DNA from: a virus | Taxonomy: Duplodnaviria > Heunggongvirae > Uroviricota > Caudoviricetes | Direction: 5' to 3' (one strand) | Length of the DNA: 14,646 nt | IMG/VR virus record: IMGVR_UViG_2718218127_000001 | Shown: positions 1-14,646 of the stretch, in pieces | Numbering within the stretch: position 1 is the stretch's first letter | How the letters are laid out: each line of letters begins with the position of its first letter | Notes under the pieces: model-generated | Told to the model about the DNA's origin: nothing | The model's input: the letters and a program-made list of their open reading frames with translations, nothing else | The model's database searches: none | Position numbers and translations under genes: made by a program

Positions 1-825
1 CTATTTCTTCTCTGTAATTTTTACACTGTTTTCCAACTGCTTGATGCTGACCTGCGGGGTCGGCAACTCCTCAGGCATGGTTCCGCCAAGTTCCTGAATG
101 GTTTGCCTCACCTTGCGACCCACGTCAAAGTGTGTGGTGTTTGCTTGCTGTTTTGAATTCACGCCATCCCGCTTGAGTTTTTCTTCTGTTTGGGTAGCTC
201 GAAAGAGATTAGCCGCCAGTTCTGTTGAACCCATATGATCCAGGATCTTCTGATTCTTTTTCAGCCCCTTCCGCTGATGAATAGCTTTCTGATCTAATCC
301 ACCATACAGCCCCTGGTAACCATGATTCTGAAATATGGCGAAATCAGTAGCTGTCGCTACCCCAGCTTGCTGTGCTGCCTCAACCAATTGTTTGTTATGT
401 TCTTTCAACTCATTTCTCAGAAACAGACGCTTTTCGTCTTCACGAAGTTGCTTAAATGCTTCATCGTCAGCAAGCTCCTGCCGTCGGGTCTGGATAGCAA
501 AATAAGTCTGCCCTGCCGCAATGACCGGTTTCGCAGGGTCGCCGTTTTGTACTACCAGGTAACAGGCATAGCGGGAGAGTACGATGTCTTTTAATGCTCT
601 TTTGGCATTTGAGCCAATTTTGACCATATCGAGGATCTCCTCGAAATGGTCATCAATTGTGTGACCACTGTTCTCACAGGCTTCTTTGGCGCGCGTTAAT
701 ACAGGTATAAAGTGACGATACTCTGAATAACCCAGTAGTTTCCCAAGTTGTCTTGCTGACCATTGTTCTGCTCCGTTTGCATTAATCAGTTTTATCTCTT
801 CAAAAGGTTGATGATGTTCGTTCAT
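1..825 (-). CDS. dinD: DNA damage-inducible protein D (DinD-like), 274 aa from the internal ATG
   Basis: Track ORF 1..837 (-). The protein from MNEHHQPFEEIKLINANGAEQW matches my recollection of E. coli DinD. The track's extra MEWA residues are read across the Shine-Dalgarno (GGAGTGGG) that sits upstream of the ATG at 823-825. A LexA box lies about 46 bp upstream. Confidence 0.7.
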   Translation of the reverse strand: MNEHHQPFEEIKLINANGAEQWSARQLGKLLGYSEYRHFIPVLTRAKEACENSGHTIDDHFEEILDMVKIGSNAKRALKDIVLSRYACYLVVQNGDPAKPVIAAGQTYFAIQTRRQELADDEAFKQLREDEKRLFLRNELKEHNKQLVEAAQQAGVATATDFAIFQNHGYQGLYGGLDQKAIHQRKGLKKNQKILDHMGSTELAANLFRATQTEEKLKRDGVNSKQQANTTHFDVGRKVRQTIQELGGTMPEELPTPQVSIKQLENSVKITEKK

Positions 826-870
826 TGCCCACTCCATGTGATATCAATTGCAAAGAAAGTAAATCTGTAA

Positions 871-886
871 CTGTATTTATATACAG
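871..886. promoter_or_regulatory. LexA operator (SOS box) in the dinD promoter
   Basis: CTGTATTTATATACAG fits the CTGT-N8-ACAG consensus with an AT-rich spacer, directly upstream of the dinD start. In dinD orientation it reads AACTGTATATAAATACAGTT. Confidence 0.75.
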
Positions 887-1268
887 TTGTGAGTATCTCA
901 CGTTCTCAGTGTGCTGGGCAAAAAAACATCGCAAAATCTGGAGCAGGCACGCAAAACAGAATTGAATGTTGCGGGGAAGAAAAATGCCGCTCTGTTTGAG
1001 TGGCGGCATTTGTGAAGGCGGAAAAGTAAGAATTGGCGTTACGAGTTATTCGATGTTGAATCTGTTTATTGAGTAGTGGCTTTAAATGCCCGTGGTTGCT
1101 GTGTTTCTTGTAATGCGTTTTCTCAGTAGGTACACCCTTGTGTACACGGTATTTTGAGGTGCTGTCTTTGGCTGCTCGTTTTATGCTCTCATGCTTGCTG
1201 TTCTGGCCTCTTATCTTTTGCGCCTTATTGTATGATAGTGCTATCCCACAATAAGGAACCTGCCAGCT

Positions 1269-1628
1269 ATGAGAATGACCAGCCGCAAAAAAGAGATACT
1301 TAGCTACTTTGAACCGGATAACCTCGAATGGGTGACTGGTGAGATTGGTGCGCCGCCGTTCGATGTGTCGGGTGTGGCCTACCTGCTTCATGGCATGGTG
1401 TCGTTCGATAAGCGCCACCAGATCGAATCAACCCGGCGCACACTGGAAAGCATGGTTGCTGGTGGACTGCTTGAGCGGGTGACAGTGTATGAATCGCGCC
1501 AGATACGGCGCGGCGGTGATACTAACGCAACGGTCGTGCGCTACGGTTTACCCGGTCAGTGCGCTGTTATGCGCGATACTGGCGGCGCTGATAACGCAAT
1601 ATCAGGTGAATACATGCGGGTCAGTTAA
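1269..1628 (+). CDS. hypothetical protein, 119 aa; the only plus-strand gene, divergent from dinD; may be the distal island gene or chromosomal
   Basis: Track ORF with ATG start at 1269 and AAGGAA upstream. No family recognised. Confidence 0.45.
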   Translation: MRMTSRKKEILSYFEPDNLEWVTGEIGAPPFDVSGVAYLLHGMVSFDKRHQIESTRRTLESMVAGGLLERVTVYESRQIRRGGDTNATVVRYGLPGQCAVMRDTGGADNAISGEYMRVS

Positions 1629-1860
1629 TAGCCTGCAATCTGTCGTTGATGCGGCTCAGGTCGTAAACCCGGCGTTCAATATCCAGCATCAGGAAATTGT
1701 GGATCTCGGCCTGCTCAGGATTATCAGACTCTCTGGCCTGTAATAGCAATTCATTGTAACCATGCAAACCGCCTGAGTTTTCCGCCGGGGTGGCGCCTTT
1801 CCCACGCAGGCAGCTAATGGGCTGATTGCTCGTATAGTTACATGTGGAATAATCCCATAT

Positions 1861-2046
1861 CTACCTACGCGGCGCTGGCTTCTTCCACTGGTAGGCAGGT
1901 GCTCGCATCATTTCGCGGAACCTGTCGCGCCGGGCTATATCGGCATTAACTGAGCGTTCTATCTCCCGTTGATCTGCCAGTGTAAGCTGGTGGCCTCCGT
2001 GCTCAAGTTTGGCGATGGTCAATAAAGCTATTTCGCGTGGTGTCAT
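1861..2046 (-). CDS. hypothetical small protein, 61 aa
   Basis: Track ORF with ATG start and an AGAGGG motif upstream. No recognisable domain. Confidence 0.3.
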   Translation of the reverse strand: MTPREIALLTIAKLEHGGHQLTLADQREIERSVNADIARRDRFREMMRAPAYQWKKPAPRR

Positions 2047-2253
2047 ACGTCATACCCTCTGGAAGGATGAAACACGCCCGGATTAAATTTCATTTTTCGC
2101 GGGTATGAAAAAACGATGGGGCGGGCAGTCCTTAAGGCTCAGGGTTGCAGAGATTTGGCCTCCCCCTCCCGGTGATAGTTTATTGCTTGATGTGGACGGC
2201 TTGCTATATTGGCGGCGAATGCAAATTGTCGCAGAAGTCTATCCCGTTCCTTG

Positions 2254-2279
2254 ACGCCCCGTGCGGGCGTTTTGCTTTT
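2254..2279 (+). terminator. putative rho-independent terminator on the plus strand
   Basis: Stem ACGCCC, loop CGTGC, stem GGGCGT, then TTTGCTTTT. The opposite strand has no U-tract. Confidence 0.35.
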
Positions 2280-2889
2280 ACAAAGTCAGGCCAATGCCTC
2301 TGGCTGCTTTCCCCGCCTTACGCTCAACCATGCCCGTGATTCTATCTACTACCGGACTGAATGCCTGCCAGTAAGCCACCTCCATTGCTGACAACTCTGC
2401 CCGCTTCCTGTCAAACGTAGCCCAGCGCATCCCCTTTGGTTTTGGGAACATGCGAATGTCATTAAACAGATTATTGGCAAGGTCATTGCTTCCCCATATC
2501 GCGCATCGCTGCTGGCGTATCTTCATTCGCATCCTGTCCAGTCTGTCGGCGCTCTGGCTTTTATAGTGGAGTTTCCAGCACGCCCGGCAGCCAATATCTT
2601 TCTTGCCGATATACAGCTTTGCAGCCCGTTTCATACAGTGGGGACAAACGTACCATTCCCGGACGCCATACCCGGCTTGTGTGGTCGTGGTTCTGATTGC
2701 CCGTGTAACGCCGTTGATTGTCATGGCGTAGCTGTCGGCTTGCCGGAAGGTATACAACGTTCCGCTTTCGGTCTGGGTATAAAGCTGCGTCCCCGGTTCG
2801 GCGTCCGCCAGCCTGCTACGCATGTTCGCAAGGAATGGCAACCCTATACGGGGCAGGTCGGTGATATAGCTGCGCGTTCTGTCTCTCAC
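2278..2889 (-). CDS. hypothetical Cys4 zinc-ribbon protein, 203 aa
   Basis: Track ORF. The start is GTG, preceded by a perfect AGGAGG 7 nt upstream. Contains CPHC-x14-CRAC (C-x2-C ... C-x2-C). Confidence 0.55.
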   Translation of the reverse strand: MRDRTRSYITDLPRIGLPFLANMRSRLADAEPGTQLYTQTESGTLYTFRQADSYAMTINGVTRAIRTTTTQAGYGVREWYVCPHCMKRAAKLYIGKKDIGCRACWKLHYKSQSADRLDRMRMKIRQQRCAIWGSNDLANNLFNDIRMFPKPKGMRWATFDRKRAELSAMEVAYWQAFSPVVDRITGMVERKAGKAARGIGLTL

Positions 2890-2992
2890 TGGCGGGCCTC
2901 CTGCGAATTACTGCGCATTAACTGCGAACGGTGCGCAAAAATGAATGCGAAATAATATGCGTATTTTACTGTAAATTGCGCACTATTTTGCG

Positions 2993-3110
2993 CACTGCGA
3001 ACCAATGGCGCGAGCCAGAATATTTTGGACTGCCTAAATCGAATATGGCTTCCAGCCCGCTACTGGCGCGGTTCTCTCTTCATATGGGCTTTGAGTCTGT
3101 CCAGTACAGT
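2993..3110. repeat. regulatory repeat block A (copy 1 of a duplicated ~80-110 bp module)
   Basis: Shares with block B a conserved stretch of the form ACCA-TGGCGCGA-CCAGAATATT-TGG ... CCTAAATC ... TTCCAGCC ... CTGGCGCGG, followed by a CTGT-N5-ACAG dyad (about 3097-3109). Preceded by several TGCGCA hexamers. Confidence 0.6.
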
Positions 3111-3143
3111 CCAGTATTTCAACATCGGTGACTATACGGATTG

Positions 3144-3521
3144 CTAACATGCGCCGTTTTTTTTAACCCTTCGCAGATCCCGCCTTGCTTGCATTGAAAC
3201 GGATCTCGCTAAACTCAGCTCAAGCCGTGCGATTCTGTCGGCATGTAGCCCCATGAGTCCGTTAATCAATGTCATCTCGCGCCATTCTTCTGTTCCCGGC
3301 GTCGGATTAGTCGCCAGTAATAGCCCGTATCTCTCAGCCATCATGAGGTTTCTTGCACGATTTCGCACCAGCGGAGAAAGCGCATCTTCTCCCTCAAACG
3401 GGAAGAATGCCCGCCTACTGCGTTCGCCATGTTTGACGGCATTAGTATTGCCCAACGGTGCGCCTGCGCCTTTCCGCTTGCCACCCCATCCGGATCTTGA
3501 TTGTTGGCTATTTTTTTTCAT
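3144..3521 (-). CDS. hypothetical basic protein, 125 aa; possible small-terminase-like or packaging-redirecting protein
   Basis: Track ORF with ATG start. The N-terminus GKRKGAGAPLGNTNAVKHG resembles motifs I associate with small terminase-type DNA-binding proteins; this is from memory and unverified. Confidence 0.5.
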   Translation of the reverse strand: MKKNSQQSRSGWGGKRKGAGAPLGNTNAVKHGERSRRAFFPFEGEDALSPLVRNRARNLMMAERYGLLLATNPTPGTEEWREMTLINGLMGLHADRIARLELSLARSVSMQARRDLRRVKKNGAC

Positions 3522-3575
3522 TTAACGGCTCACTGTGCGCAAAAACCCTAACTGAATGCGCGGTTTTGCTGCGTA

Positions 3576-3705
3576 CCTGACTGCGTACTGCGTACCAGTG
3601 GCGCGAACCAGAATATTCTGGACGACCTAAATCACGCTCTGGTTTCCAGCCCTCTGCTGGCGCGGGTTTAGCGCTACTTGGGTTTAAAATCTGTCAAGAA
3701 CAGTC
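3576..3705. repeat. regulatory repeat block B (copy 2), upstream of the 125-aa gene
   Basis: Contains the perfect 14-bp palindrome CCAGAATATTCTGG (about 3608-3621), a CTGTCAAGAACAG dyad (about 3691-3703) and CTGCGTAC repeats. It is the direct-repeat partner of block A. Confidence 0.6.
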
Positions 3706-3735
3706 TAGAATTTTAGCCTGCGTTCGGTGCGAACC

Positions 3736-4086
3736 TCACGGCACAGACGAGTACCAGTAAAAGCCTGTTAGCCCGGCATCGCAGCGCTCACGATTAAGCA
3801 CACGTGGCGGGTTTTCTCTGGTCATCAACTCAAGCAAGGCATTGCTTCCCTGCGTCTCCAGTCGGTATTGCCTGTCGGTAGTGGTAATGGCATCCGGCAA
3901 TAACTTTATGGCGGCCTGGCTAAAGTCTCGCGGTGCGCCGTAAAATTGCGCATCAACAATATGAACCACATCGCCGTTAATCGTTGTCCGATAACGGTCT
4001 GGCTGTATAGTAAAGCCCCCACAATGGATAGCAGATAGTGCCGGTGCCGATGAGATCAGGACGGCTGCCAGAATGTATGGCTTCAT
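3736..4086 (-). CDS. hypothetical secreted protein, 116 aa
   Basis: Track ORF with ATG start and GGTGGGTGA upstream. The N-terminus MKPYILAAVLISSAPALSA looks like a Sec signal peptide. Two Cys residues. Its start overlaps the upstream stop as ATGA. Confidence 0.55.
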   Translation of the reverse strand: MKPYILAAVLISSAPALSAIHCGGFTIQPDRYRTTINGDVVHIVDAQFYGAPRDFSQAAIKLLPDAITTTDRQYRLETQGSNALLELMTRENPPRVLNRERCDAGLTGFYWYSSVP

Positions 4087-4724
4087 TCTTCACCCACCAA
4101 TTCATCCAGTTCAGCCAGCGTCATAGGCTTTGGTACAGGCTTGTCAATATCACCCATAATGCGCTGGAAGTTTCTGGCAGGCATATGGTTACGGTTCTCC
4201 AGTATTTTCGCCAGCGCGATAACATCCCACCATTTCAGGGCAATCAGCGCCTCAGCACGGGAAAGTGATATTCTCTGTATATCAGCATCCTCTCCACCAG
4301 CCACCCGGTATACCTCTGATAAATCACGAACATTTTTCATGTCTGCTTTCCCGGACGTTTCCATCAGTGCGTTAATATCATCCCCCGTATAGCGTGATTG
4401 CGCGACGATACCAGCCAGAGAGATAACCATATCCCGGCATACCTGGTCTATCAGACGTAATCTGGCGTCATCGTTCGAGAGGGTGTAAGACTTAACCTCA
4501 GCCACATTCCGTGGATAGTTGGCGTGCCATACCGCGACGGCTCCACACTCATCAACATCGCCGCTAAGGTAGGTTTTTGCCACTCGGTTATTACCCGATA
4601 ACGCAATTTCTACCTCCTGTATGCCGAAAAACCATGCGGCTATCGCATGACCTGCTTCGTGTATTGCGAGATGTCTGGGCCAGCGATAGCTGCCTAACTC
4701 GATAATGATGGGTTGCGTACTCAT
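4083..4724 (-). CDS. putative zinc metallopeptidase with an HEAGH motif (FtsH/M41-like active site), about 213 aa, no AAA+ or transmembrane region
   Basis: Track ORF 4083..4781. I prefer the internal ATG (MSTQPI...) because the longer form overlaps the SSB-like gene by 47 nt and the internal start has GAGAGGGAA upstream. The motif IHEAGHAIAAW is identical over seven residues to the FtsH zinc-binding signature. Confidence 0.5.
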   Translation of the reverse strand: MSTQPIIIELGSYRWPRHLAIHEAGHAIAAWFFGIQEVEIALSGNNRVAKTYLSGDVDECGAVAVWHANYPRNVAEVKSYTLSNDDARLRLIDQVCRDMVISLAGIVAQSRYTGDDINALMETSGKADMKNVRDLSEVYRVAGGEDADIQRISLSRAEALIALKWWDVIALAKILENRNHMPARNFQRIMGDIDKPVPKPMTLAELDELVGEE

Positions 4725-4734
4725 ATCTTCCCTC

Positions 4735-5196
4735 TCAGAATGGCGTTTCATCGTCGAATGGTGGGCGTTGGTCAAAATCATCAGGGGTATTATATAACTC
4801 CCATCCCGGCGCGGATTGTGTTGTGTGGCCCCTGCTGGCTCCGCTTGCTTTGACTGATTCGGCCCGCTTCCCGCCGGGGCGTACCGTTCTGGCGCTGATC
4901 ACGCTGTCGGCTACTACCTGATAACCTTGCTGTGTACCGCCATCCTTGCCCGTCCACTGATTGATCTGCATCGCTCCGGCAACACTGACTAAATCGCCTT
5001 TAACGTGTCCTGCCAGTGCGTCGGCCTGTTTGCCGAATGCCACCACGCCCAGCCAGAAAGTAACCTCTCCGCCCTCTGCTGTATGGCAGGGCAGTGCCAC
5101 CGCTAACCGTCCCATTGCCATGCTTGTACCGTTCGTTGTGGTACGGGTCTGGGGATCTGCCACCAGCCGCCCGTATGCTGAAATTTGTGCTGTCAT
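4735..5196 (-). CDS. single-stranded DNA-binding protein (SSB-like OB fold with acidic C-terminal tail), 153 aa
   Basis: Track ORF with ATG start and GAGGAA upstream. The pattern W..VVAFGK.A......KG..V.V.G.....W....G......VV parallels the E. coli SSB core, and the C-terminus ...PPFDDETPF resembles the SSB ...DFDDDIPF tail. Confidence 0.65.
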   Translation of the reverse strand: MTAQISAYGRLVADPQTRTTTNGTSMAMGRLAVALPCHTAEGGEVTFWLGVVAFGKQADALAGHVKGDLVSVAGAMQINQWTGKDGGTQQGYQVVADSVISARTVRPGGKRAESVKASGASRGHTTQSAPGWELYNTPDDFDQRPPFDDETPF

Positions 5197-5495
5197 AGAT
5201 ATTTCCTCATGTAGTCACTACCTCCGGGGATAATTTTCATTTCTTCCCTTAAAGGCCACTGCTCCGCCATTGCTGCGGTCGAGTGATTCCCGTCATCACG
5301 TCCGGCCTGTGCTGCCGTCCAGTGTGTTGCATATTCTGTAAATCCAATTTCTGCTGGCTGCCTCATCCAGTGGGCGATCATCCTCAAGGTCATTTGCAGG
5401 CTTTGGGTGTCGCCCTGTAATGCGCGTTTGTCAGTAAACCCCTTCAATGCTTCACGCTCCTGATAGGTCATTTTCTGGCTGGTTTCTGTATTCAT
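5193..5495 (-). CDS. hypothetical protein, 100 aa; first gene after the origin
   Basis: Track ORF with ATG start and GAGGTG 5 nt upstream. Its stop overlaps the SSB-like start as ATGA. Confidence 0.5.
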   Translation of the reverse strand: MNTETSQKMTYQEREALKGFTDKRALQGDTQSLQMTLRMIAHWMRQPAEIGFTEYATHWTAAQAGRDDGNHSTAAMAEQWPLREEMKIIPGGSDYMRKYL

Positions 5496-5548
5496 TGCCC
5501 ACCTCGTTATAAGCTACCCCCCCCATAGAATCTTTTTGGGGGTGTAAT

Positions 5549-5800
5549 ATCCCTACCAATCCCTACTAACTGGCTCAGGCCACGAATGGCAAGGCTTTCA
5601 GACTGGTAGACATTCAATTTTGTTGCCCTACATAACCCTACTTATCCCTACTAAATCACTTCAACGGCATTTTACTGCCTGTTTTATTTGGTAGGGATAA
5701 GTAGGGATAAGTAGGGATAAAAATATATATCCCTACCTAGTTTAAAGCCTTGCTACGTCTGGCCTCGTCTCGTTTTTAGTAGGGCAGTAGGGATAAGTGC
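5549..5800. repeat. iteron-type replication origin
   Basis: At least 11 copies of a TAGGGATAAG / CCCTAC core with 10-bp phasing: inverted-orientation copies near 5549-5566 and 5626-5651, three perfect tandem GTAGGGATAA units at 5691-5720, an AT-rich stretch AAAATATATAT, then further copies near 5731 and 5779-5796. Lies immediately 3' of the primase gene. Confidence 0.7.
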
Positions 5801-5813
5801 CGCCGTAAAAGTT

Positions 5814-8255
5814 TCAATCATCACTCTGCCCGCTCTCCACACCGTAAGCGCGTGGCATGAACTCCTCAGCCTTCTCGTTATAGCCAACGTTGGTTTGCGC
5901 TCTGCCGTTAATGCTTCTCGTCAGGTAGCTGGCTCGGTACTCTTTTGCTGCTGATTTTATGGCGCGTGAAAACTTATTGACGGAAAGCGGTTTACCCAAA
6001 CCGTGATACTCCATAAACGCCAGATAAAGATGATAAAGATACGTCCTCGGCTCTGGCTGGCCTGCCCATGTACCTCCGCCCATCATCATGCCTTTGGGTT
6101 CGTTCATGAAAAAAAGCGCCGCACACATATCGACAACCGGATCCGTGCCGCGTTTAACCTCTAGCGCCTCCTGCGAATCGCGCTGCTCTAGTAATAGTGC
6201 CTTTGCTTTGTTCTGGTCGGCAAAGGTGGTTAGCAGGTGGCGGATAATCACCGGGATTTCTCGCCTGATTTTTGCGGTTAAATCCGGGTCTTTGTCTGCG
6301 TCTGATACCGGGTTATTAAACGGGAATATCACGCGGCGGCGGGCAATGCCCCCGTTTCGCTCCGTGAATGTCATTGGCTCGTTATTGGTTGCCATAACAA
6401 CGGCATTTATCACGGTTGTGAACTGCTTTTCATATTTCCCATCAATCTCTACCGGATCGCCGCCCGTAATGGCTTTAATCCCCGCACCCTCTCCAACGTA
6501 GCGGGTCTGGTCAGGCATAATAATCAGGCTTTTCCCTACGAACTGCGCCCGTCCCCGTGCGGTGTCCAGCGTCATCATGCTACCGCTGGCGGTGTTGTGT
6601 TCACCTGCCAGCGTGGTTGCTATGCTGCTGAATACGGATTTCCCACTGCCGCCCTCGCCAGTTATCTCAATGAATAGCTGCCAGTCGTGACGCTTCGCCA
6701 GCACCATAAACAAGGCTGCTTTGATACGCTCGGCCTTATGATGGTCGCCAGCCGTTGCATGATTCAGCCAACGGGTAAAATTGGGGGCGCTGGTGGAAAT
6801 ATTCTCCCCCGGCGCTGGCGGGGTGTAGGTGATCCCATTGTGGTTCATCAGCCAGTTACCCGGCGAATGGGCGGAAAACGTCTGCGTAGCGAGGTCATAA
6901 ACGCCGTTATCAAAACCAATCAGATCCCCGCTCCGCTCACCAATTACCGGTATTTGCAGCTTCATGGTTGCGACAACCGATTTAATCCCTTTTTCGGTGT
7001 AGTGGGCTTCGTGCTCGTCGAAAATTGCCACCATAACCCTTTCTAATTCGCTGTCTGGTAGCTTCACCCATACGCCAGATTCGTAGCAGTAAACAGCGCC
7101 ACTATCAGGGTTGACCGCCAACATATCCCAGCGAGATGAAAGCAACCGCGCTTTCTGGCTGGCTGCCATTTGTGCAATATCTCCGACTTCGGCTTTACGG
7201 CGGGATTTACCGCCCACAATGGCCTGTAGTTGTGGTTTCACGGCTTCCCCCTGAATCTGGTACATCGAATCGTTAAACGCAGCCGTAGCGACTTCCAGCC
7301 CGTTTTGCTGGCGGTAGTCGTCCCAGTCGGCTTTGTAGTCTGTCGGCGGCAGCGCCACCCAGCCAGCCACGGATAAGGCGGCTTTCTCTGCGGCATCTTT
7401 GCCCGTGTTCGCCTGTTCGTCCTGCTGGTGGTCGTTATCTGCGGCAATGATAATTTGCGACTGCGGGTGTTTCCGGCGCATTACTCCGGCAACGTGGATC
7501 AGGTTCCCGGCGTCAATTGCCGCCACTGTAAGCGCGTCCGGGCGCATCAGGTGAACGGACAGGGCCGTCGCCAGCCCCTCGGCAATTAATACGCTCTGCG
7601 GCTGTTCTGGTGCGTTTACGGCGTGATATGCCCCGCGCTTTGCTGAACCTGTCAGGAGTCGCTTCTCTCCCTGCGGTGTAATGGTTTGCGCTGCTGCCAC
7701 TGCGCCGGATTCGTCCACCAGCTCCAGCAATAACGAACCATCCGGCATAACCGGATAGTTAAACCCGGTCAGCCCTTTTGATTGCAGGTAATCAGATTCT
7801 CCCTGTGTGGCACTCTGGCGCATTCCGGCATACAGACGGGCAAACGTAGCCCTTCGCTGCTCTGCATCCTCTGCTGCCTGTTTCTGGCGCTCCTGCTCAC
7901 GCTGCTGGCGGTCAGCTTCCAGTTGCTCTCTTCTATGGCTCGCTGCCACCGGGTCGGTTTGCGCTGCCCGGTAATCAATACCCAGCACATCAGCGGCAAG
8001 CTGTGCCGCCTCCGTAGTGTCGCAGTTGTTCACCTTCTTAATCAGGTCTAAACCGTCACCAGCGCCACACTGATTGCAGATAAAGCTACCGCGCCCGTTG
8101 TCGTCGAATCTGAAACGGTCTTTTCCACCACATGCAGGGCATGGAGAATGGCGGCGCGATGAATCAGGCACGTCGATAGACAATCCAGCCAGCACATAAG
8201 GCCAGCGCCCGGCGGCGGCACTGGTCACTTCGCGGATAAGGTCGATATTACGCAT
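5814..8255 (-). CDS. P4-alpha-like bifunctional DNA primase/helicase, 813 aa
   Basis: Track ORF with ATG start. N-terminal zinc ribbon CPACGGKDRFRFDD...FICNQCGAGDG, a central TOPRIM-like region, and a C-terminal NTPase with Walker A GEGGSGKS. Confidence 0.88.
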   Translation of the reverse strand: MRNIDLIREVTSAAAGRWPYVLAGLSIDVPDSSRRHSPCPACGGKDRFRFDDNGRGSFICNQCGAGDGLDLIKKVNNCDTTEAAQLAADVLGIDYRAAQTDPVAASHRREQLEADRQQREQERQKQAAEDAEQRRATFARLYAGMRQSATQGESDYLQSKGLTGFNYPVMPDGSLLLELVDESGAVAAAQTITPQGEKRLLTGSAKRGAYHAVNAPEQPQSVLIAEGLATALSVHLMRPDALTVAAIDAGNLIHVAGVMRRKHPQSQIIIAADNDHQQDEQANTGKDAAEKAALSVAGWVALPPTDYKADWDDYRQQNGLEVATAAFNDSMYQIQGEAVKPQLQAIVGGKSRRKAEVGDIAQMAASQKARLLSSRWDMLAVNPDSGAVYCYESGVWVKLPDSELERVMVAIFDEHEAHYTEKGIKSVVATMKLQIPVIGERSGDLIGFDNGVYDLATQTFSAHSPGNWLMNHNGITYTPPAPGENISTSAPNFTRWLNHATAGDHHKAERIKAALFMVLAKRHDWQLFIEITGEGGSGKSVFSSIATTLAGEHNTASGSMMTLDTARGRAQFVGKSLIIMPDQTRYVGEGAGIKAITGGDPVEIDGKYEKQFTTVINAVVMATNNEPMTFTERNGGIARRRVIFPFNNPVSDADKDPDLTAKIRREIPVIIRHLLTTFADQNKAKALLLEQRDSQEALEVKRGTDPVVDMCAALFFMNEPKGMMMGGGTWAGQPEPRTYLYHLYLAFMEYHGLGKPLSVNKFSRAIKSAAKEYRASYLTRSINGRAQTNVGYNEKAEEFMPRAYGVESGQSDD

Positions 8256-8589
8256 GGTTGCCTCCTGCCACGGTCGCGCCCATGTCTTTAACCATGCTTT
8301 GCCATATCTCGCGCCCGACGTCAGTCAATCCGTCCTTAGTGACGCAACGCTCAAGAAGCTCGACCCCCACGGTTTCCCACTGCGGGTAGGACACTTTCAT
8401 GGCTGCCAGTGTGTAGCTATCGATCAGGCTGCGAACGCCTTTTACTCCATTGACGATTTCCACACGGACGGCGAGGCCGTCCGCATCAACCATGAAATAG
8501 TCCCCGCCGCTGGTGGAGGTAATGTGGTTATACAGTGCCGACGCATATTTATTAGCCAGCGCATTCAGTCGGAAATTTTTAGTAATCAT
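8248..8589 (-). CDS. hypothetical protein, 113 aa
   Basis: Track ORF with ATG start and GAGGGG upstream. Overlaps the primase start by 8 nt. Confidence 0.55.
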   Translation of the reverse strand: MITKNFRLNALANKYASALYNHITSTSGGDYFMVDADGLAVRVEIVNGVKGVRSLIDSYTLAAMKVSYPQWETVGVELLERCVTKDGLTDVGREIWQSMVKDMGATVAGGNHA

Positions 8590-8597
8590 GTCGCCCC

Positions 8598-9224
8598 TCA
8601 GTGCGGCAGCGGCATTTCAGGCCAGCCGTTTTCATCCAGTTCAGCTATAAAGCTGTTGTGAAGTTCAGCAAGCGTTTCACGTCCGAACGGGGTAAGCTCG
8701 CCGCGCTCCGTATCCAGCATCGCCTTATAAAACACAATGGCTTTTTCCGTACCCTGTTCGACGCCGTATCGCTCAATCATTGCGCCCTCGATGTTGTTCG
8801 CCATCGCCAGCCGTTCAGCAAACGGGTAAATCACCATGCCCGCATTACCATTGGAGTAAATCGCCACCTGCGATGTTGTGCCGTCAGCCTCCGTGACGGA
8901 GGTTGTGCCGTTTTCGCGCTTCATTTCAGAAACGAACTTCGCAGCAATCAGCCAGCGCCACATAGTGACGTTATGCTGCGCGGTAAAGTCGAACCAGCCA
9001 CGCGCCCCGCCATCAGCAACGGCAAAATGAATGGCGTAGCCGATATCTGGCGTATCGTCGTACTCTCCCGCATCCAGACGGCTTACAGCGCTCTCATAGG
9101 TGATAATGGCTACATGCTCATACATCCCGGCATCATTGCGGGTCATGATGTTTACGCCGTGCGGTGTGGCTTCGGCGTGTAATAAGTCGGCATTTCCCGA
9201 TTTAATGGTCGGTGCGTTGCTCAT
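8598..9224 (-). CDS. hypothetical protein, 208 aa
   Basis: Track ORF with ATG start overlapping the upstream stop (ATGA). No domain recognised. Confidence 0.55.
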   Translation of the reverse strand: MSNAPTIKSGNADLLHAEATPHGVNIMTRNDAGMYEHVAIITYESAVSRLDAGEYDDTPDIGYAIHFAVADGGARGWFDFTAQHNVTMWRWLIAAKFVSEMKRENGTTSVTEADGTTSQVAIYSNGNAGMVIYPFAERLAMANNIEGAMIERYGVEQGTEKAIVFYKAMLDTERGELTPFGRETLAELHNSFIAELDENGWPEMPLPH

Positions 9225-9484
9225 GCGCTGCCCTCCGCATCAATTCTGGCTATATCGACAATCGTCAGGACTTTACTAAGCCAGCAATACACGATTTCGG
9301 CCTGTTCATCGTTTAGTTGAGTGGCTAAATCGGTCATAACGTGAGCCAGCCCATTGCGGGCGCGGGTCATGCGTTCTGCCGTTCGGTCTGCCAGCGTAAA
9401 ATCATCCGGGTAAGCCTGCTCGCGGGATAACATCGCTTCGGCTTCCAGCTCTGCCGGGTGGCGATAGATGGTAGTTATGTTCAT
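9221..9484 (-). CDS. hypothetical acidic protein, 87 aa
   Basis: Track ORF, part of the coupled operon. Confidence 0.45.
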   Translation of the reverse strand: MNITTIYRHPAELEAEAMLSREQAYPDDFTLADRTAERMTRARNGLAHVMTDLATQLNDEQAEIVYCWLSKVLTIVDIARIDAEGSA

Positions 9485-9795
9485 TTGCCCGCCCTCCCTT
9501 TGGCTTCTTTTTCACTGATTGAGCGCAAGAATGCGGCGTTTGCAGCGCTATCGTTCAGCGCCCGCGCAACTTCTCCGATATGTCCCAGCATTGCGCCTAA
9601 TCTGTACATATCAGCCCTAACGCTTTCCGCCGGGTAGTCATCGCTATTAGCCGCCCAGAACATGAGGCTACCGATGGCACTTACGCCCAGCATTAAATCA
9701 TTCACGGCATCACTGGCGCGGCTCTCAATTCCGTTCAGATCATCAGGTGTACAACCATCAAAGTCGCAGGACACTAAATCGTTATACAGGCTCAT
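9481..9795 (-). CDS. hypothetical protein, 104 aa
   Basis: Track ORF with ATG start overlapping the upstream stop (ATGA). Confidence 0.45.
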   Translation of the reverse strand: MSLYNDLVSCDFDGCTPDDLNGIESRASDAVNDLMLGVSAIGSLMFWAANSDDYPAESVRADMYRLGAMLGHIGEVARALNDSAANAAFLRSISEKEAKGRAGK

Positions 9796-9971
9796 GCTGC
9801 CACCTCACGAACGCGGGTAATCTGGATGTGGGAAAGGCGTTCATTTCTGGCCTGATTTAGCGCCTCAGCTTTGGCGCTGATCGCGCTGCGGGCGTCAACG
9901 ATATAAACGAACTCGACTAATTCGCCGCTCCGGGCGGTGGCGCATCCTGCAACACGGAAGTAATTAAGCAT
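9792..9971 (-). CDS. hypothetical small protein, about 59 aa from the internal ATG
   Basis: Track ORF 9792..10001 begins with TTG. The internal ATG (MLNYF...) has AGGGGG upstream and overlaps the preceding stop by 8 nt. Confidence 0.35.
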   Translation of the reverse strand: MLNYFRVAGCATARSGELVEFVYIVDARSAISAKAEALNQARNERLSHIQITRVREVAA

Positions 9972-10155
9972 GTGCGCCCCCTGTGCGAATACGTCCGGCA
10001 AAAAAGCAAACGTGATCCCGCGCCAGAATGCGGCGGGCTTCCTGCTCAGTCTCTGCGGCGATATGGTGAATTTTGGCGGTAATTGTCGGCATATCGCGGC
10101 GAACTGCTGCGATAATCCAGATAAATTGCGGTTTTTGGGTAGGGGTAGTAGCCAT
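9964..10155 (-). CDS. hypothetical small protein, 63 aa; first gene of the replication-module operon
   Basis: C-terminal part of the track's 250-aa GTG ORF. It has an ATG with a strong AAGGAGG 8 nt upstream (MATTPTQKPQ...). Confidence 0.45.
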   Translation of the reverse strand: MATTPTQKPQFIWIIAAVRRDMPTITAKIHHIAAETEQEARRILARDHVCFFAGRIRTGGAHA

Positions 10156-10182
10156 TATGGCAGCCTCCTTTGTGTTTAAGGA

Positions 10183-10221
10183 GTCACCGCCTGAGTTTCC
10201 ACGCTCTGAAATGGCGGTGAC
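10183..10221 (-). promoter_or_regulatory. stem-loop in the 5' leader of the replication-module operon
   Basis: Inverted repeat GTCACCGCC ... GGCGGTGAC (9-bp arms, about 21-nt loop). On the minus strand it is followed by TCCTT, which could pair with the AAGGAGG of the 63-aa gene. Confidence 0.3.
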
Positions 10222-10345
10222 GTTAGCAGGGGTGGAAATACCGGACACAAAGGAAACCGGCCTACGCGAACGTAGCCCCACTAACGCCACCATAGATACA
10301 GTACGGACGAGGCCGCTGATTTGATGTGCGTAGTGATCGGACACA

Positions 10346-10367
10346 AAAAAAGACGCTTTCGGCGTCT
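10346..10367 (-). terminator. putative rho-independent terminator on the minus strand
   Basis: Minus strand reads AGACGC-CGAAA-GCGTCT followed by TTTTTTT. It sits between the regulatory module and the replication module. Confidence 0.45.
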
Positions 10368-10654
10368 GTGTCGCCCTTAGTGTGTTCGGGTTTCCACGCC
10401 CGGTTGCTGATTTTGCAGCAACGCTTGGACTATAACAGCTTTTCTCTGCTAGGTGGTCATACCAGATAAAACCGTAACCCTTTAAGAGTTTTTCCTGTGC
10501 ACGGCTCACCATCTTTTTGTTGAGGGTAAGCGCCTCGCGTACTGGTAACGGAACTCCGGGCGCTGCGGTATCAATATCAGGTTTTGTAAGGTTGCAGATG
10601 TCAACTTTTGACAACATGCCAGCCAGATTAAAGGCTTCTTTCTGGGCGGCAGGT

Positions 10655-10837
10655 TCATTCAGTATCACGGCGCACCTCCACGAACTCATTAACGAATCTC
10701 TCCAAAGGCTGAACACATGGCGACTGATAGCCCTCGCGGTAAAAGGTCACTCGGTTATGCTCGACGCGCTGTACGGTCACTACAGCCCCGTGACTGTCCT
10801 TGTAACGGCTTCCCGGCATCGGATTATGGTTACGCAT
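10655..10837 (-). CDS. hypothetical small protein, 60 aa
   Basis: Track ORF with ATG start and GGAGGT 6 nt upstream. Overlaps the upstream stop by 8 nt. Confidence 0.5.
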   Translation of the reverse strand: MRNHNPMPGSRYKDSHGAVVTVQRVEHNRVTFYREGYQSPCVQPLERFVNEFVEVRRDTE

Positions 10838-11663
10838 GGTTTACCTCCAGACGTTTAGCGAGCCAGCGCTGAGAGAGGCGGATTAGCTCGGCTTTACGCA
10901 GGTCATATCCCATACCCATATCAATTAACGTGATATTGGTGCTTTCGAGATAGGCGAGGTGTTCAAGCTGTGCTGCGTTCATGCTGTCCCGTGGTTCGCC
11001 AGTAATGCCATTTGCCTGCGCCCACTGCTTCGCCGTCATGCCACCCAGCACGATACGGGCGATCATGTTGCTCTCGTTGCTGTAGTGGCGCTGCTGCGTC
11101 GTTTTACCCTGCTCGGCACGGGCCATATTCAGCGCATCGCACATTGGCTTAAAGTTGTTTGCGGCACTGATACGGGCTTTTAGCTGGCGACGATAGCGGG
11201 CGGCGATTTCAGGCACGCTACGCTGTAATTCTTCCTCGCACTGGATGAAATAACGGCGGATAGCGCGGCCCTGTTCGGTGCGTTCGACCATCGCCAGTTC
11301 TTTCGCCATTCCGACACTTAACAGATAGTCTTTGCCGGGTCTGCCAGACTGTTTAATCTTGCTGTAAGCCGCGCCATTCGGGCTTTTCCCCAGATTTGGG
11401 GAAATTGTTTTATGGACTGAGTAATCGTGCCCAATGGTGAAGTCATATTCAGAGATGCGATCAGCGATCCATGTAGAGAAGTCTTTTCCCACGCCCAACG
11501 CTTTGTGTAACGCTTTTGCGCTAACAATATTGGTTTCACGCCCACCGATATGACCAGGAATAACCGGGACAATTGTGGCAAATTCATTACCGTTAATTGT
11601 TCCCTGATAGGCGTTCAGATGAGGGGCGGCCTCAGAAATTAATCTGCTTTTTTCGATGTTCAT
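10830..11663 (-). CDS. phage antirepressor-like regulatory protein (AntA/KilAC-like), 277 aa
   Basis: Track ORF with ATG start and GGAGA upstream. The segment DYLLSVGMAKELAMVERTEQGRAIRRYFIQCEEEL resembles phage antirepressor / Bro-KilA type proteins; this assignment is from memory. Confidence 0.45.
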   Translation of the reverse strand: MNIEKSRLISEAAPHLNAYQGTINGNEFATIVPVIPGHIGGRETNIVSAKALHKALGVGKDFSTWIADRISEYDFTIGHDYSVHKTISPNLGKSPNGAAYSKIKQSGRPGKDYLLSVGMAKELAMVERTEQGRAIRRYFIQCEEELQRSVPEIAARYRRQLKARISAANNFKPMCDALNMARAEQGKTTQQRHYSNESNMIARIVLGGMTAKQWAQANGITGEPRDSMNAAQLEHLAYLESTNITLIDMGMGYDLRKAELIRLSQRWLAKRLEVNHA

Positions 11664-11675
11664 TTTCAGTCTCCG

Positions 11676-12110
11676 TTAGGCGGCGGTGAGATTGTCCGGG
11701 TATAGGTTGAGAATGTCGGCAATTTCAGGCTGAGAAAGTCCCTGATAGCCGCCAGCGTCGGCGTTATGGTTCACAAGCCGAATAACTTTCAGAACGTCAC
11801 CGCGCCCGGTAAAGCGATAGCGTAAATGTGACCCTATCCCGTCGGGGTTCTTTTCGTCTATACGCTCAAGCTGAATATCAAGCCTGCGCTCTAACTCACT
11901 GGCGTAGTTCCTTCCAGACGAAAGGCGGCAATAACGCAGAATGTCGTTTTCTGTCCATCCCTCTACGCCAGTACGCAGCATATAGACGCGGGCGCGGTGT
12001 TTCTTTGGGGTTCGCTTAGGTACTTGTACCGGGCTGGTGGTCGGCGTAATATCAGACGTGCGAATATCTGAGTTAGCCGCCTGCTGTACGGGGCGGTTTT
12101 TCTTTTTCAT
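11676..12110 (-). CDS. hypothetical basic protein, 144 aa
   Basis: Track ORF. Its ATG overlaps the alpA stop (TAATG), so it is translationally coupled to alpA. Confidence 0.5.
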   Translation of the reverse strand: MKKKNRPVQQAANSDIRTSDITPTTSPVQVPKRTPKKHRARVYMLRTGVEGWTENDILRYCRLSSGRNYASELERRLDIQLERIDEKNPDGIGSHLRYRFTGRGDVLKVIRLVNHNADAGGYQGLSQPEIADILNLYPDNLTAA

Positions 12111-12313
12111 TACGCCACCTTTCCCCGGCGCTCCGCCAGCCAGTTGTGAATATCAGCCGCATCAAAGGCGGTAATCTTCTCGCCCAGCTTTACCGGACGT
12201 GGTAGTGAACCGTTTCTTACTTTACGGTCGATGGTGGATACACTAACGCCCAGCAATTCAGCCAGGCGAAAGCGTCTGATATAGCCTTTTGTAGGGATAG
12301 TGTCGATGTTCAT
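12110..12313 (-). CDS. alpA: AlpA-family (Vis/excisionase-like) HTH transcriptional regulator, 67 aa
   Basis: Track ORF with ATG start and AAGAGG upstream. The helix-turn-helix LAELLGVSVSTIDRKVRNG and its small size and position next to a P4-type integrase are typical of AlpA/Vis. Confidence 0.72.
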   Translation of the reverse strand: MNIDTIPTKGYIRRFRLAELLGVSVSTIDRKVRNGSLPRPVKLGEKITAFDAADIHNWLAERRGKVA

Positions 12314-12425
12314 GATTCCCGTAACCTCTTAGCGATAGTTGTTGCTTCGTTACGGGTATTTAATGGTGTGTATGCTCAAAAGTGAATTACAGTAAATTTT
12401 ATTGTCACGATACTAAATTTTATTA

Positions 12426-13271
12426 TCATGATTTCTTCTTTCCTGCCGTGGTACGTTTTTCCGGCAATCTGTCCATGTCAGATATGATCTTCTTTAAATA
12501 ATCTGCAGATGGTTCATCATAATCGCCACCCACATGTGGCCAGTGGTCTATCGTAGCGTTTGCCCACGCTTCGTTGGTTTCTTTCCCGTTTTTCCCTTTG
12601 CACTCTTCAGGATAGTGCCGTTTCACATAAATCAACGCCATAATGCTATTCTCACGGTTTAGGCTATGTCGTGCTCTATTTCCATGCTCTATGTTTTTAA
12701 ATTCCTTTTCATAAAGATCGTGTGAACCCAAATGGAGTATGCTGGATATTGGCTGATTTTTATCCATGCTTTCAGCTATATATTCAACCCACGGTCTTGA
12801 TATATACAAATCTTCCACAGACGATACGGTGGTATCATATTCGCGAAAATCGTAGAAAAAGTAACATCCTGATGTGATGTCTAGTTCTTTTTTTATATAT
12901 GCTGGTGAGAATATGAGTGGAATGTCAGGGACTCTCTTAACCCCTGCAAGGGAAGCAATGAAATCTCTAGGAACGTGCCATAATCCACTTGCTGAGCACT
13001 TCATACCATCGAAAAAACCTTCATTTAGATATCTTTCGGTATCTTCTCTAGTAGAAATAATAGAACCAAATAATAAGTTTTCTATGCCTTTGCTGCCGTG
13101 GTCTGGTGGCAAGTTTCCCACTTGAAGGAGTACGCCTTCATACTTGTGAATTATTGTGCTCAAAAATATAGAGCCTGATACTCCCATAAGTAGAAGATCA
13201 TCGACTTCTATTTCTAATAAATTTGCTGCTCTATTAAGTCGGAAAAAAAGATTTGGTGGTAGTTTTTTCAT
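12426..13271 (-). CDS. hypothetical orphan cargo protein, about 281 aa, AT-rich
   Basis: Track ORF 12426..13286 begins with GTG. The ATG five codons in (MKKLPPN...) has AGGTGA upstream. Base composition is visibly more AT-rich than the flanking genes. No family recognised. Confidence 0.6.
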   Translation of the reverse strand: MKKLPPNLFFRLNRAANLLEIEVDDLLLMGVSGSIFLSTIIHKYEGVLLQVGNLPPDHGSKGIENLLFGSIISTREDTERYLNEGFFDGMKCSASGLWHVPRDFIASLAGVKRVPDIPLIFSPAYIKKELDITSGCYFFYDFREYDTTVSSVEDLYISRPWVEYIAESMDKNQPISSILHLGSHDLYEKEFKNIEHGNRARHSLNRENSIMALIYVKRHYPEECKGKNGKETNEAWANATIDHWPHVGGDYDEPSADYLKKIISDMDRLPEKRTTAGKKKS

Positions 13272-13386
13272 TGCGTCACCTTTCACGCTACGCCTTAATG
13301 AGCGATTGAGTCAGGCGGTAAGGCTTCCCGCTTTTCACCCCGTCGGGCTAGACTCAATCTGTCCTCTGATTCTTTACATATCTTGG

Positions 13387-14646
13387 TTACTTCGCCTTTC
13401 TCAGCGGTGTAACGTTGTATTCCTGCCCCTGTTCCAGTGCCACCAGCAATCCCGCCCACTGTGTTAACGCGGCCCGGCGTTCATCAAAGTATTGGTGGCG
13501 GTTATAGATACCCTCCACGCCTTTAATTTTGTGGTTGAGGCATCTTTCAGCCACTACGGGATCAACGCCCAGCGCGGCTAAATGGGTGCGGGCTGTGCGC
13601 CGGAAGTCGTGAATAGTGAAATTCGGCACGTCCGGCATTTCAGCGCGAACCTTAGCCAGTGCTACGGGTAAAGTGCTTTCCTGAATATGTGGGATCATGC
13701 GGTTTTGCATCTTTCTGGCTGGCAGTACCCATGCGCTGTTGCATGAGAACGTTTTAAGCTCTCTCAGCCATTCGACGGCTGGCGGTGCTAATGGAATGTC
13801 TATAGCGTCGCCGTTTTTGCTGCGTTCCTCTGGCAAGCGCCATACGGCTTTATCAAAATCGAACTCCTCCCAGCGGGCGGCGCATAACTCCATTTTGCGG
13901 ACGCATAACGCTAACAGTAATTTGAACGTGATTTCGTTCTGGCGACTGAATCCCTTAGCCGTGCGCATGGCTTTGAATAGCTGGATTAACTCATCGCGGG
14001 TTAACCAGCGGTCACGGGCAACTTCTTTCCCTCCAGCGTCGGCAACCTCAAAGGCTGAACACGGGTTAATCTCCAGTGCGTGCCGCTTAATGCCGTAGTC
14101 AAATATGCGGCGTGTCCAGCGCAGAACGTCCGTTGCTATGGTCGGCGCTCCACGGTCAACAATACCTTTCAGCATGTCATCGATATGGCGCGGCTTCACG
14201 TCCTCCACCTTCATGCTGCCAATGCAGGGGTTTATATCTTTGTCGATACGGCGGCGGAGTATATCGGGGTGCTTCCAGCGCGGAAGGATCTGACGCTCAA
14301 AGTATTCAGCGGCAAGCTCTGAAACGCGCATAGCGTTCTTCTCTGCTTCCATCTTCGCCAGTGCTTCGGTTTTGCGCCTCTGCTTCTCTCCTGCAACGTC
14401 ATAGCCCAGCGCAACGCGAGCCGATAGCTCTTTGGCTGTCTCTCTGGCCTTTGATAGTGATAGCTCGGCATATGAGCCAATCAGCATGGCGCGGGGTTTC
14501 CCTGCGAATTTATAGCGGAATCGCCAGACGGGGGTCTGGTAGTTTTCGCGGTATGAAAGATAAAGCCCGTTACCGTCAGAGCGTCCCTCGAATCGCTCCC
14601 CGGCCTTTATCCATGCGCGGATCTGCATGTCTGTGAGTTTTGGCAT
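13387..14646 (-). CDS. int: P4-type tyrosine integrase, 419 aa; start codon at the window edge
   Basis: Track ORF with ATG at 14644-14646. N-terminal arm-binding-like region (GLYLSYRENYQTPVWRFRYKF) and a C-terminal catalytic region with the HDFRRT...H..Y tyrosine-recombinase pattern. Confidence 0.9.
   Translation of the reverse strand: MPKLTDMQIRAWIKAGERFEGRSDGNGLYLSYRENYQTPVWRFRYKFAGKPRAMLIGSYAELSLSKARETAKELSARVALGYDVAGEKQRRKTEALAKMEAEKNAMRVSELAAEYFERQILPRWKHPDILRRRIDKDINPCIGSMKVEDVKPRHIDDMLKGIVDRGAPTIATDVLRWTRRIFDYGIKRHALEINPCSAFEVADAGGKEVARDRWLTRDELIQLFKAMRTAKGFSRQNEITFKLLLALCVRKMELCAARWEEFDFDKAVWRLPEERSKNGDAIDIPLAPPAVEWLRELKTFSCNSAWVLPARKMQNRMIPHIQESTLPVALAKVRAEMPDVPNFTIHDFRRTARTHLAALGVDPVVAERCLNHKIKGVEGIYNRHQYFDERRAALTQWAGLLVALEQGQEYNVTPLRKAK

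Follow-up and report, generated by a model that had tools for sequence, protein, structure and literature searches.

The closest described counterpart of the locus investigated here is EcCIRM13514, a PICI found at the yicC-dinD site of E. coli O145:H28 RM13514 (Fillol-Salom et al. 2018, PMC6092414, Table S1), whose published att is GAGCAGATTCAA (PMC6092414). A PICI from Citrobacter freundii, CfCIP10159, is listed at yicC-yicG with the att ATCGAGTAAG (PMC6092414, Table S1). Integration at the 3' end of yicC has also been described for the Vibrio elements MGIVflInd1, MGIVchUSA1 and MGIVmi1 (PMC5704250), reference PICIs integrated in yicC and displaying drifting identity blocks have been reported (bioRxiv 10.1101/2022.07.18.500453), 'prophage' integrations at yicC_dinD are documented for O157 (PMC9997748) and phage-like DNA between yicC and dinD is mentioned in another paper. 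EcCIMP1 (PMC11773190), which was considered as a possible match, was rejected as it sits at tRNA-Thr.

The DNA analysed here, referred to as the window, comprises 14,646 nucleotides, of which positions 838-1268 form the spacer between dinD and the first ORF of a mobile island. This spacer is very probably a composite, consisting of chromosomal DNA up to position 1064 followed by the int-distal att arm of a PICI-type AlpA/primase satellite island that has integrated at the 3' end of yicC. In this sense both the attachment site and the kind of element that uses it have been described before, and the value of the analysis lies in a base-exact island boundary (1064/1065), a named target (the 3' end of yicC), an explanation for the 'missing tRNA' and the recognition of the neighbouring SOS promoter as a bystander. 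The following features are referred to throughout the text:

1 to 837, minus strand: dinD (DNA damage-inducible protein D), assigned from an uninterrupted ORF, a Bro-N domain and the annotation of homologous regions.
871 to 886, unstranded: LexA box of the dinD promoter, CTGTATTTATATACAG, the sole CTGT-N8-ACAG in the window.
975 to 1011, minus strand: orphaned intrinsic terminator of yicC, with the stem AAATGCCGC/GCGGCATTT, a 12-nt loop and then TTTTTCTT.
1046 to 1064, minus strand: core of the left junction, TTATTCGATGTT--GAATCTG, defined by the end of homology at 1064 and the alignment of left junctions.
1065 to 1160, unstranded: int-distal arm of the attachment site (P' arm), the first island-specific DNA.
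1130 to 1147, unstranded: GTACAC-N6-GTACAC, two probable integrase arm-type sites separated by 12 nt from start to start.
1223 to 1256, unstranded: 34-nt near-palindrome, CCTTATTGTATGATAG / CTATCCCACAATAAGG, overlapping the RBS of the first island ORF.
1269 to 1628, plus strand: first island ORF, 119 aa, without assigned family, conserved at the int-distal end of the island family.
5814 to 8255, minus strand: primase, an 813-aa P4-family protein.
12110 to 12313, minus strand: AlpA-family regulator and excisionase candidate (PF05930 Phage_AlpA, E = 1.8e-7).
13387 to 14646, minus strand: P4-type tyrosine integrase (int), whose start codon is located at the last base of the window.

EcCIRM13514 shares with the window its site and orientation, with int next to yicC and the far end next to dinD, an integrase that is 85.7% identical at the protein level, an identical left-junction core TTATTCGATGTTGAATCTG and the same GTACAC dyad, and both elements encode an AlpA-type HTH protein, an antirepressor, an Icd-like protein, a primase and an SSB. 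The two differ in their remaining sequence, where apart from the ends and int the alignment is limited to short stretches of 68-72% identity, in their primases, with the P4-family protein of the window contrasting with 607 aa in EcCIRM13514, and in their accessory genes, and the published att of EcCIRM13514 is shifted by a few bases into yicC compared to the block defined here. CfCIP10159, which was compared via its published table entry, resembles the window in its location at the 3' end of yicC and in its att, which coincides with the 21-nt block at its stop-codon end, whereas it originates from another species and has no dinD as neighbour. The Vibrio elements similarly contain a tyrosine integrase aimed at the 3' end of yicC but, rather than being phage satellites, they are genomic islands mobilised by conjugative elements (SXT/R391); the relatives with 41% integrase identity that adjoin yicC in marine Gammaproteobacteria (L059, L061) may belong to the same category.

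P4-type elements replace the 3' end of their target tRNA or tmRNA gene with an element-borne copy. The same logic of 3'-end replacement applies to the present island, except that its target is a protein gene and not a tRNA, and the likeness to P4 and CP4-57-type elements extends to the architecture of the integrase, the AlpA/Vis-type regulator and the P4-family primase. Homologues of P4 sid, psu and delta were not detected in the island in searches of Pfam and PHROGs. The attachment site also resembles attP of phage lambda in its short core, in flanking arms with direct repeats at a distance of about 60-190 nt and in the presence of a separate arm-binding domain in the integrase, whereas the sequence and number of the repeats differ.

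The left boundary of the island was located in a megablast search of positions 700-2400 against 5,426 complete E. coli genomes, 4,719 of which were matched. In island-free genomes the match encompasses query positions 1-365 only (window 700-1064), in a region annotated as dinD next to yicC and at 99.5% nucleotide identity, and at least 80% of the query was covered in only 45 of the 5,426 genomes, all of them island carriers. The island-free strain 14EC017, where the stop codon of yicC is found 220 nt after dinD and both genes are on the minus strand, reads ...GTTACGAG TTATTCGATGTTCTGAATCTG at the end of homology, which, read on the opposite strand, encodes the six C-terminal residues of YicC and the stop (QIQNIE*). 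At the equivalent position, the window reads ...GTTACGAG TTATTCGATGTT--GAATCTG and, across the boundary, TTTATTGAGTAG... Of the last 21 nt of yicC (six codons plus stop), 19 are present at 1046-1064 and two are missing as a gap, so that this stretch represents the end of yicC in displaced form. Since homology to island-free strains stops at 1064, the last base of this copy, the boundary is placed at 1064/1065 and island-specific DNA begins at 1065. An earlier note on this DNA had suggested that the island starts within the 838-1268 spacer, as is now evident from the comparison with island-free E. coli, and had proposed the alignment with such strains as a test of whether 1269-2277 might be conserved chromosomal DNA, which the end of homology at 1064 shows not to be the case. 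Its suggestion that the att site might be found wholly beyond the integrase does not hold for the int-distal junction, which is located inside the spacer at 1046-1064. An uninterrupted dinD-yicC junction was found in 4192 of the 5426 complete E. coli genomes, with the remainder broken in the region of the yicC stop codon, and in about 23% of the genomes something resides at the yicC-dinD site.

The arrangement on both sides of the boundary recurs in related islands. We aligned the left junctions of ten E. coli islands (including L002, L003, L005-L008, L083, L085 and L086), which share the order ...ACGAG, a remnant of the yicC end, TGAATCTG and TTTATTGAG. The adjoining P' arm is conserved among islands that are otherwise unlike in content, with homology ending at 1155 in the GF4 island and at 1161 in EcCIRM13514, and because homology with these otherwise unrelated islands stops at 1155-1161, we assigned the arm of the attachment site to about 1065-1160. 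The same arm adjoins a core and an int arm in a locus from Serratia (L054). On the chromosomal side of the boundary, a hairpin at 982-1011 is followed by a T-run on the minus strand (fold -12.2 kcal/mol, z = -2.1), and the same terminator is found 36 nt downstream of the yicC stop codon in 14EC017. This hairpin is the native terminator of yicC, which the island has cut off from its gene and left on the dinD side, where it would be expected to end minus-strand transcription from the island ahead of dinD.

At the opposite end of the island, the integrase shows the arm, central and C-terminal catalytic domains of a P4-type (Arm-DNA-bind_3 / DUF4102) protein, as defined by matches to PF13356 Arm-DNA-bind_3 (E = 3.9e-18), PF22022 Phage_int_M (5.4e-17) and PF00589 Phage_integrase (6.2e-18), all above the gathering score. 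The int-proximal junction of the window and its yicC are probably located just past the right edge, as judged by analogy with the sister islands L003 and L007, which are 96% identical to the window at the nucleotide level in int and 97% identical at the left end, respectively; QDFD216 is 96.4% identical to window 12400-14646 and YZ22PE67 97.1% identical to 700-2400. In seven fetched E. coli islands, comprising six sisters (EC21Z-137, QDFD216, 042, 0H26, 19-5 and YZ22PE67) and EcCIRM13514 (RM13514), an intact yicC is found about 190 nt beyond int. The join between int and yicC in sister islands reads ...GCTGATAGC TTACTCGATATTCTGAATCTG CTCGCGCAT, the last part belonging to the body of yicC, and the block at this join in the seven E. 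coli islands, TTAYTC...CTGAATCTG, shows two differences to the empty site, both of which are synonymous. A strong island-supplied terminator (AAAAAAGCCCGC...GCGGGCTT) follows about 55 nt outside the block. The last six codons of yicC and its new terminator are in the sister islands of island origin.

P4-type integrases are usually directed to the 3' ends of tRNA genes, as the earlier note had pointed out while remarking that no tRNA-like sequence is visible in this DNA. ARAGORN indeed identified 0 tRNA or tmRNA genes in the window and Rfam none, with no RNA family found in 780-1320 at E<=1, and on the basis of both searches a tRNA or tmRNA target was rejected; the sister islands abut yicC instead. 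Integration is thus directed at a protein gene, yicC, more precisely at its 3' end, the far remnant of which is contained in the window at 1046-1064, while loci of integrase relatives contain the intact co-oriented gene. The second of the two alternatives raised in the note, a protein-gene target, is thus borne out by the sister islands and by loci from other genera.

The latter were identified in a scan for integrase relatives using one genome per species, which provided 73 loci. In 47 of these, with integrases of 41-95% identity, a complete and co-oriented yicC was detected by tblastn to end about 170-250 nt upstream of int. The hosts of the 47 loci span Gamma- and Betaproteobacteria and include the genera Enterobacter, Erwinia, Pectobacterium, Serratia, Yersinia, Pantoea, Aeromonas, Tolumonas, Zobellella, Chromobacterium, Vogesella and Azonexus. 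Between yicC and int the layout is conserved and consists of the stop codon, about 45 nt, a terminator, AAAGCGCA, two pairs of short repeats and int. Relatives with an identity of 26-31% reside beside genes for tRNA-Leu, -Met, -Glu, -Thr and -Ser or beside tmRNA, which agrees with the general preference of P4-type integrases. Three of the closest sisters, with an identity of 62-64%, are found at the 3' end of der/engA (L049) and at a mipA-family gene (L046, L047), and target switching among protein-gene 3' ends within a single integrase lineage is indicated. In the mipA loci, which are from Citrobacter and Leclercia, and in the der/engA locus from Klebsiella michiganensis, positions ~2170-2500 contain the same arm of terminator, AAAGCGCA and GTGTACCC repeats. 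The yicC clade retains its target and its attP layout from Enterobacterales to Betaproteobacteria, while the arm repeats change with the integrase. The insight from this survey across genera is modest, as it helps to predict the att sites of satellites and reveals no new principle.

Three things are observed, namely where the junction lies, which gene is targeted and that core, arms and repeats are conserved across genera, and from these we propose the following route of integration. The attP of the island would carry a 21-nt copy of the yicC 3' end, TTAYTCGATRTTCTGAATCTG (in minus-strand sense CAGATTCAGAAYATCGARTAA, encoding QIQNIE*), which the P4-type integrase would recombine with the same 21 nt in the chromosome. 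On the int-proximal side, yicC would in this way keep a synonymous C-terminus supplied by the island and gain an island-borne terminator, while on the int-distal side its original end and terminator would be stranded next to dinD. The GTACAC-N6-GTACAC at 1130-1147 would constitute the P'-arm pair of arm-type sites for the N-terminal domain of the integrase, with four similar sites on the other arm extending from int to yicC. Excision is presumably assisted by AlpA.

The core copy at the int-distal junction is complete (21 nt) in only one of the ten E. coli left junctions (ET979). Six of the ten islands share the 2-nt gap, which in identical form is found on two different flanking alleles, and the other three have lost 5, 10 and 11 nt. 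In these nine of ten islands, the deletions (2-11 nt) are restricted to the stretch from the yicC stop codon to TGAATCTG, and the TGAATCTG beside the island arm is kept in all ten junctions. With 2 nt removed from its core, both junctions of the window's island share exactly only TGAATCTG, which makes its competence for excision uncertain. The deletions may reflect either neutral decay of a non-coding remnant that was spread by recombination or scars at the site of cleavage. In a more specific version of the latter, decay would be non-random, with abortive cleavage by the integrase and subsequent repair repeatedly scarring the int-distal junction and locking satellites in the chromosome while selection on the C-terminus of yicC protects the other junction, a scenario that we regard as unlikely. 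More serious, although still doubtful, is the possibility that the window contains a decayed and immobile remnant, whose left junction is a scar with a core having lost 2 nt. This would be in line with the core-copy deletions in nine of ten left junctions, with a deletion of about 423 nt in the window at the adjoining pRiA4b ORF-3-like gene and with the truncated int of some sisters (L007). However, Int, AlpA and primase are all full-length in the window and its arm repeats are intact, the published PICI EcCIRM13514 has the same junction with a 2-nt gap, and this gap may fall outside the overlap region used in strand exchange.

A search with a synthetic P-core-P' query detected neither an attP, nor a circular form, nor a tandem join in the complete E. 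coli genomes (coverage <=54%). In loci from Serratia, Rahnella and Pantoea (L054 1620-2500, L036 2290-2330 and L063 2290-2320), the 21-nt yicC-end block or a degenerate copy of it is located between int-distal-type and int-proximal arms without yicC, thus resembling an attP or a join of tandem islands. In E. coli B18271 (L084 2490-2640), a left arm of 98.6% identity to that of the island continues at CTGAATCTG not into the dinD side but into a truncated acyltransferase gene, which is adjacent to a gene for a phage injection protein. This join could originate from integration at a secondary site, from a tandem array or from a rearrangement.

A short direct repeat of the GTGTACAC type had previously been noticed in the spacer, where it was considered as junction or operator sequence. 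The repeat is real, with copies of GTACAC at 1130-1135 and 1142-1147, the second of which is contained in the palindrome GTGTACAC (1140-1147). GTACAC-N6-GTACAC is found once in the window against 0.03 expected occurrences; the 7-mer TGTACAY alone is not significantly enriched in the window. As the dyad is located about 65-80 nt inside the island, to the right of the true junction, it does not mark the latter. Its block GTACACCCTT(G/A)TGTACACG is nearly invariant in the ten E. coli left junctions whereas the surrounding arm diverges, with EcCIRM13514 and GF4 clearly differing on both sides. GTACAY-N6-GTACAY is present in 53 of the 85 loci examined. About 40 int loci from other genera contain the dyad, mostly as a single match approximately 60-80 nt upstream of int, although a few of them deviate in its position or copy number. 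E. coli islands contain the dyad at both ends. The int-proximal arm contains the word four times, at about -81, -69, -51 and -37. The most repeated 7-mer of this arm reaches 4 copies per locus, as do shuffled controls, and since the per-locus repeat count is no better than in the latter, we relied on the fixed spacing of the dyad and its positional conservation. The repeated word shifts in diverged integrases, to GTGCACA in Azonexus and to GGTGGGC in the relatives of 41% identity. Based on the conserved repeats and on the Arm DNA-binding domain of the integrase, the dyad at 1130-1147 probably represents arm-type sites on the P' arm.

Alternatively, the repeat might serve the first island ORF, either as an intrinsic terminator, with the hairpin GTACACCCTTGTGTAC and the ACGGTATTTT after it halting plus-strand transcripts that enter from the direction of dinD, or as an operator with a regulator binding to GTGTACAC. 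Although 1130-1145 appears terminator-like on the plus strand in a consensus scan and GTGTACAC is itself palindromic, the hairpin has a weak stem, with only three G-C pairs out of six, and terminator-like sites are no more common than in shuffled sequence. Moreover, the same words recur four times on the int-side arm without a T-run and without that hairpin, the distance between dyad and int is fixed across genera and a better, different palindrome is found upstream of the first ORF at 1223-1256. We consider this explanation, and with it the operator reading of the earlier note, to be very unlikely, in view of the matching repeats that relatives carry in the interval from int to yicC, and retain the assignment of the dyad as putative arm-type sites.

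On the other side of the boundary, dinD is annotated in every homologous E. coli region that we fetched, with the RefSeq-style ATG at 825 and a further in-frame ATG upstream at 837. The LexA box at 871-886 is by count alone not a significant match, as 0.19 occurrences of CTGT-N8-ACAG are expected in the 14.6 kb, compared to the one observed, and the motif is present at least once in 36 of 200 shuffled sequences. Its assignment as dinD operator instead follows from its position, 46 nt upstream of the ATG at 825, and from its identity in island-free strains, the same sequence being present in 14EC017. The operator is part of the dinD promoter rather than of the island, and it is chromosomal DNA. 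The dinD start and the LexA box had correctly been described as intact and about 400 bp away from the first island ORF (837 to 1269, 432 nt), but the emphasis on the SOS promoter was misplaced, since the location of yicC determines the neighbour, dinD transcription proceeds in the direction opposite to the island and there is no second LexA box. The presence of dinD is incidental, a by-product of the adjacency of yicC and dinD in E. coli. Many mobile elements are SOS-induced, and SOS induction is in general known to be common among them. That the position would couple the island to the SOS response, with LexA-controlled transcription in the dinD region reading into or regulating the island end at a distance of only 179 nt between LexA box and first island base, is nevertheless highly improbable and was rejected, being without support for a functional coupling, as transcription of dinD runs away from the island, a second LexA box is absent from the 14.6 kb, the constant neighbour of integrase relatives in genera out to Betaproteobacteria is yicC, CfCIP10159 sits at yicC-yicG (PMC6092414, Table S1) and published elements of this kind are induced by a helper phage through AlpA (PMC6092414). 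In two island-bearing strains, dinD is annotated as pseudogene with an internal stop or a frameshift (L002 3001-3825 and L086 14127-14949); the gene is intact in the window and in other strains, with no evident link between the pseudogene state and the island.

The island extends over about 13.8 kb, from 1065 to 14646 plus approximately 170 nt by analogy with L003. Its genes for the integrase, the AlpA-family protein, an antirepressor, an Icd-like protein with a C4-type antisense RNA, the P4-family primase and an SSB are all on the minus strand. The combination of integrase, AlpA-type regulator and primase module in one direction is characteristic of Gram-negative PICIs, the location between yicC and dinD is the listed site of EcCIRM13514, and the organisation of the island fits that of published Gram-negative PICIs. 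The published criteria for Gram-negative PICIs further comprise a size of about 10-15 kb, a lack of phage structural and lysis genes, and helper-phage induction with packaging into phage-like particles. Structural and lysis families gave no match in Pfam or PHROGs among the subset of ORFs scanned, and many ORFs of the island have no assigned family. With no helper phage, packaging or capsid-remodelling gene identified in Pfam and PHROGs, the label 'satellite' derives from the gene organisation and from published relatives.

The 119-aa product of the first island ORF had no match in Pfam, PHROGs, NCBIfam or PDB sequences, and a homologue adjoins the P' arm in Serratia L054. The near-palindrome preceding it is kept in L054 and in L009, with homology to other islands starting at about 1224, and it is a candidate operator or RBS-sequestering hairpin and marks the start of a separately mobile module. 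Palindrome and ORF are kept together beside the island arm in Serratia aquatilis (L054), and the same module is also found at other E. coli island ends (L009, L084). At about 1621-1860, where sisters contain a 543-nt gene of the pRiA4b ORF-3 family (PF07929), the window is shorter by about 423 nt and has no such ORF, and we interpret this site as a deletion remnant. Further inside the island, Rfam matches above the gathering score on the minus strand identify a C4 antisense RNA (10210-10297), isrK (10346-10422) and a c4 a1b1 target (10383-10435), all within the 250-aa 'Icd-like' ORF (9964-10716) downstream of an antA/antB-type antirepressor gene and with nothing obvious following downstream. 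The region 10210-10435 is a P1/P7-type immI-like antisense control module of the island, and the long Icd-like ORF call is probably in part non-coding. Finally, the gap just downstream of the integrase contains, on the minus strand at 13292-13358, the Rfam int-alpA RNA motif with a score of 57 bits (gathering score 35.8).
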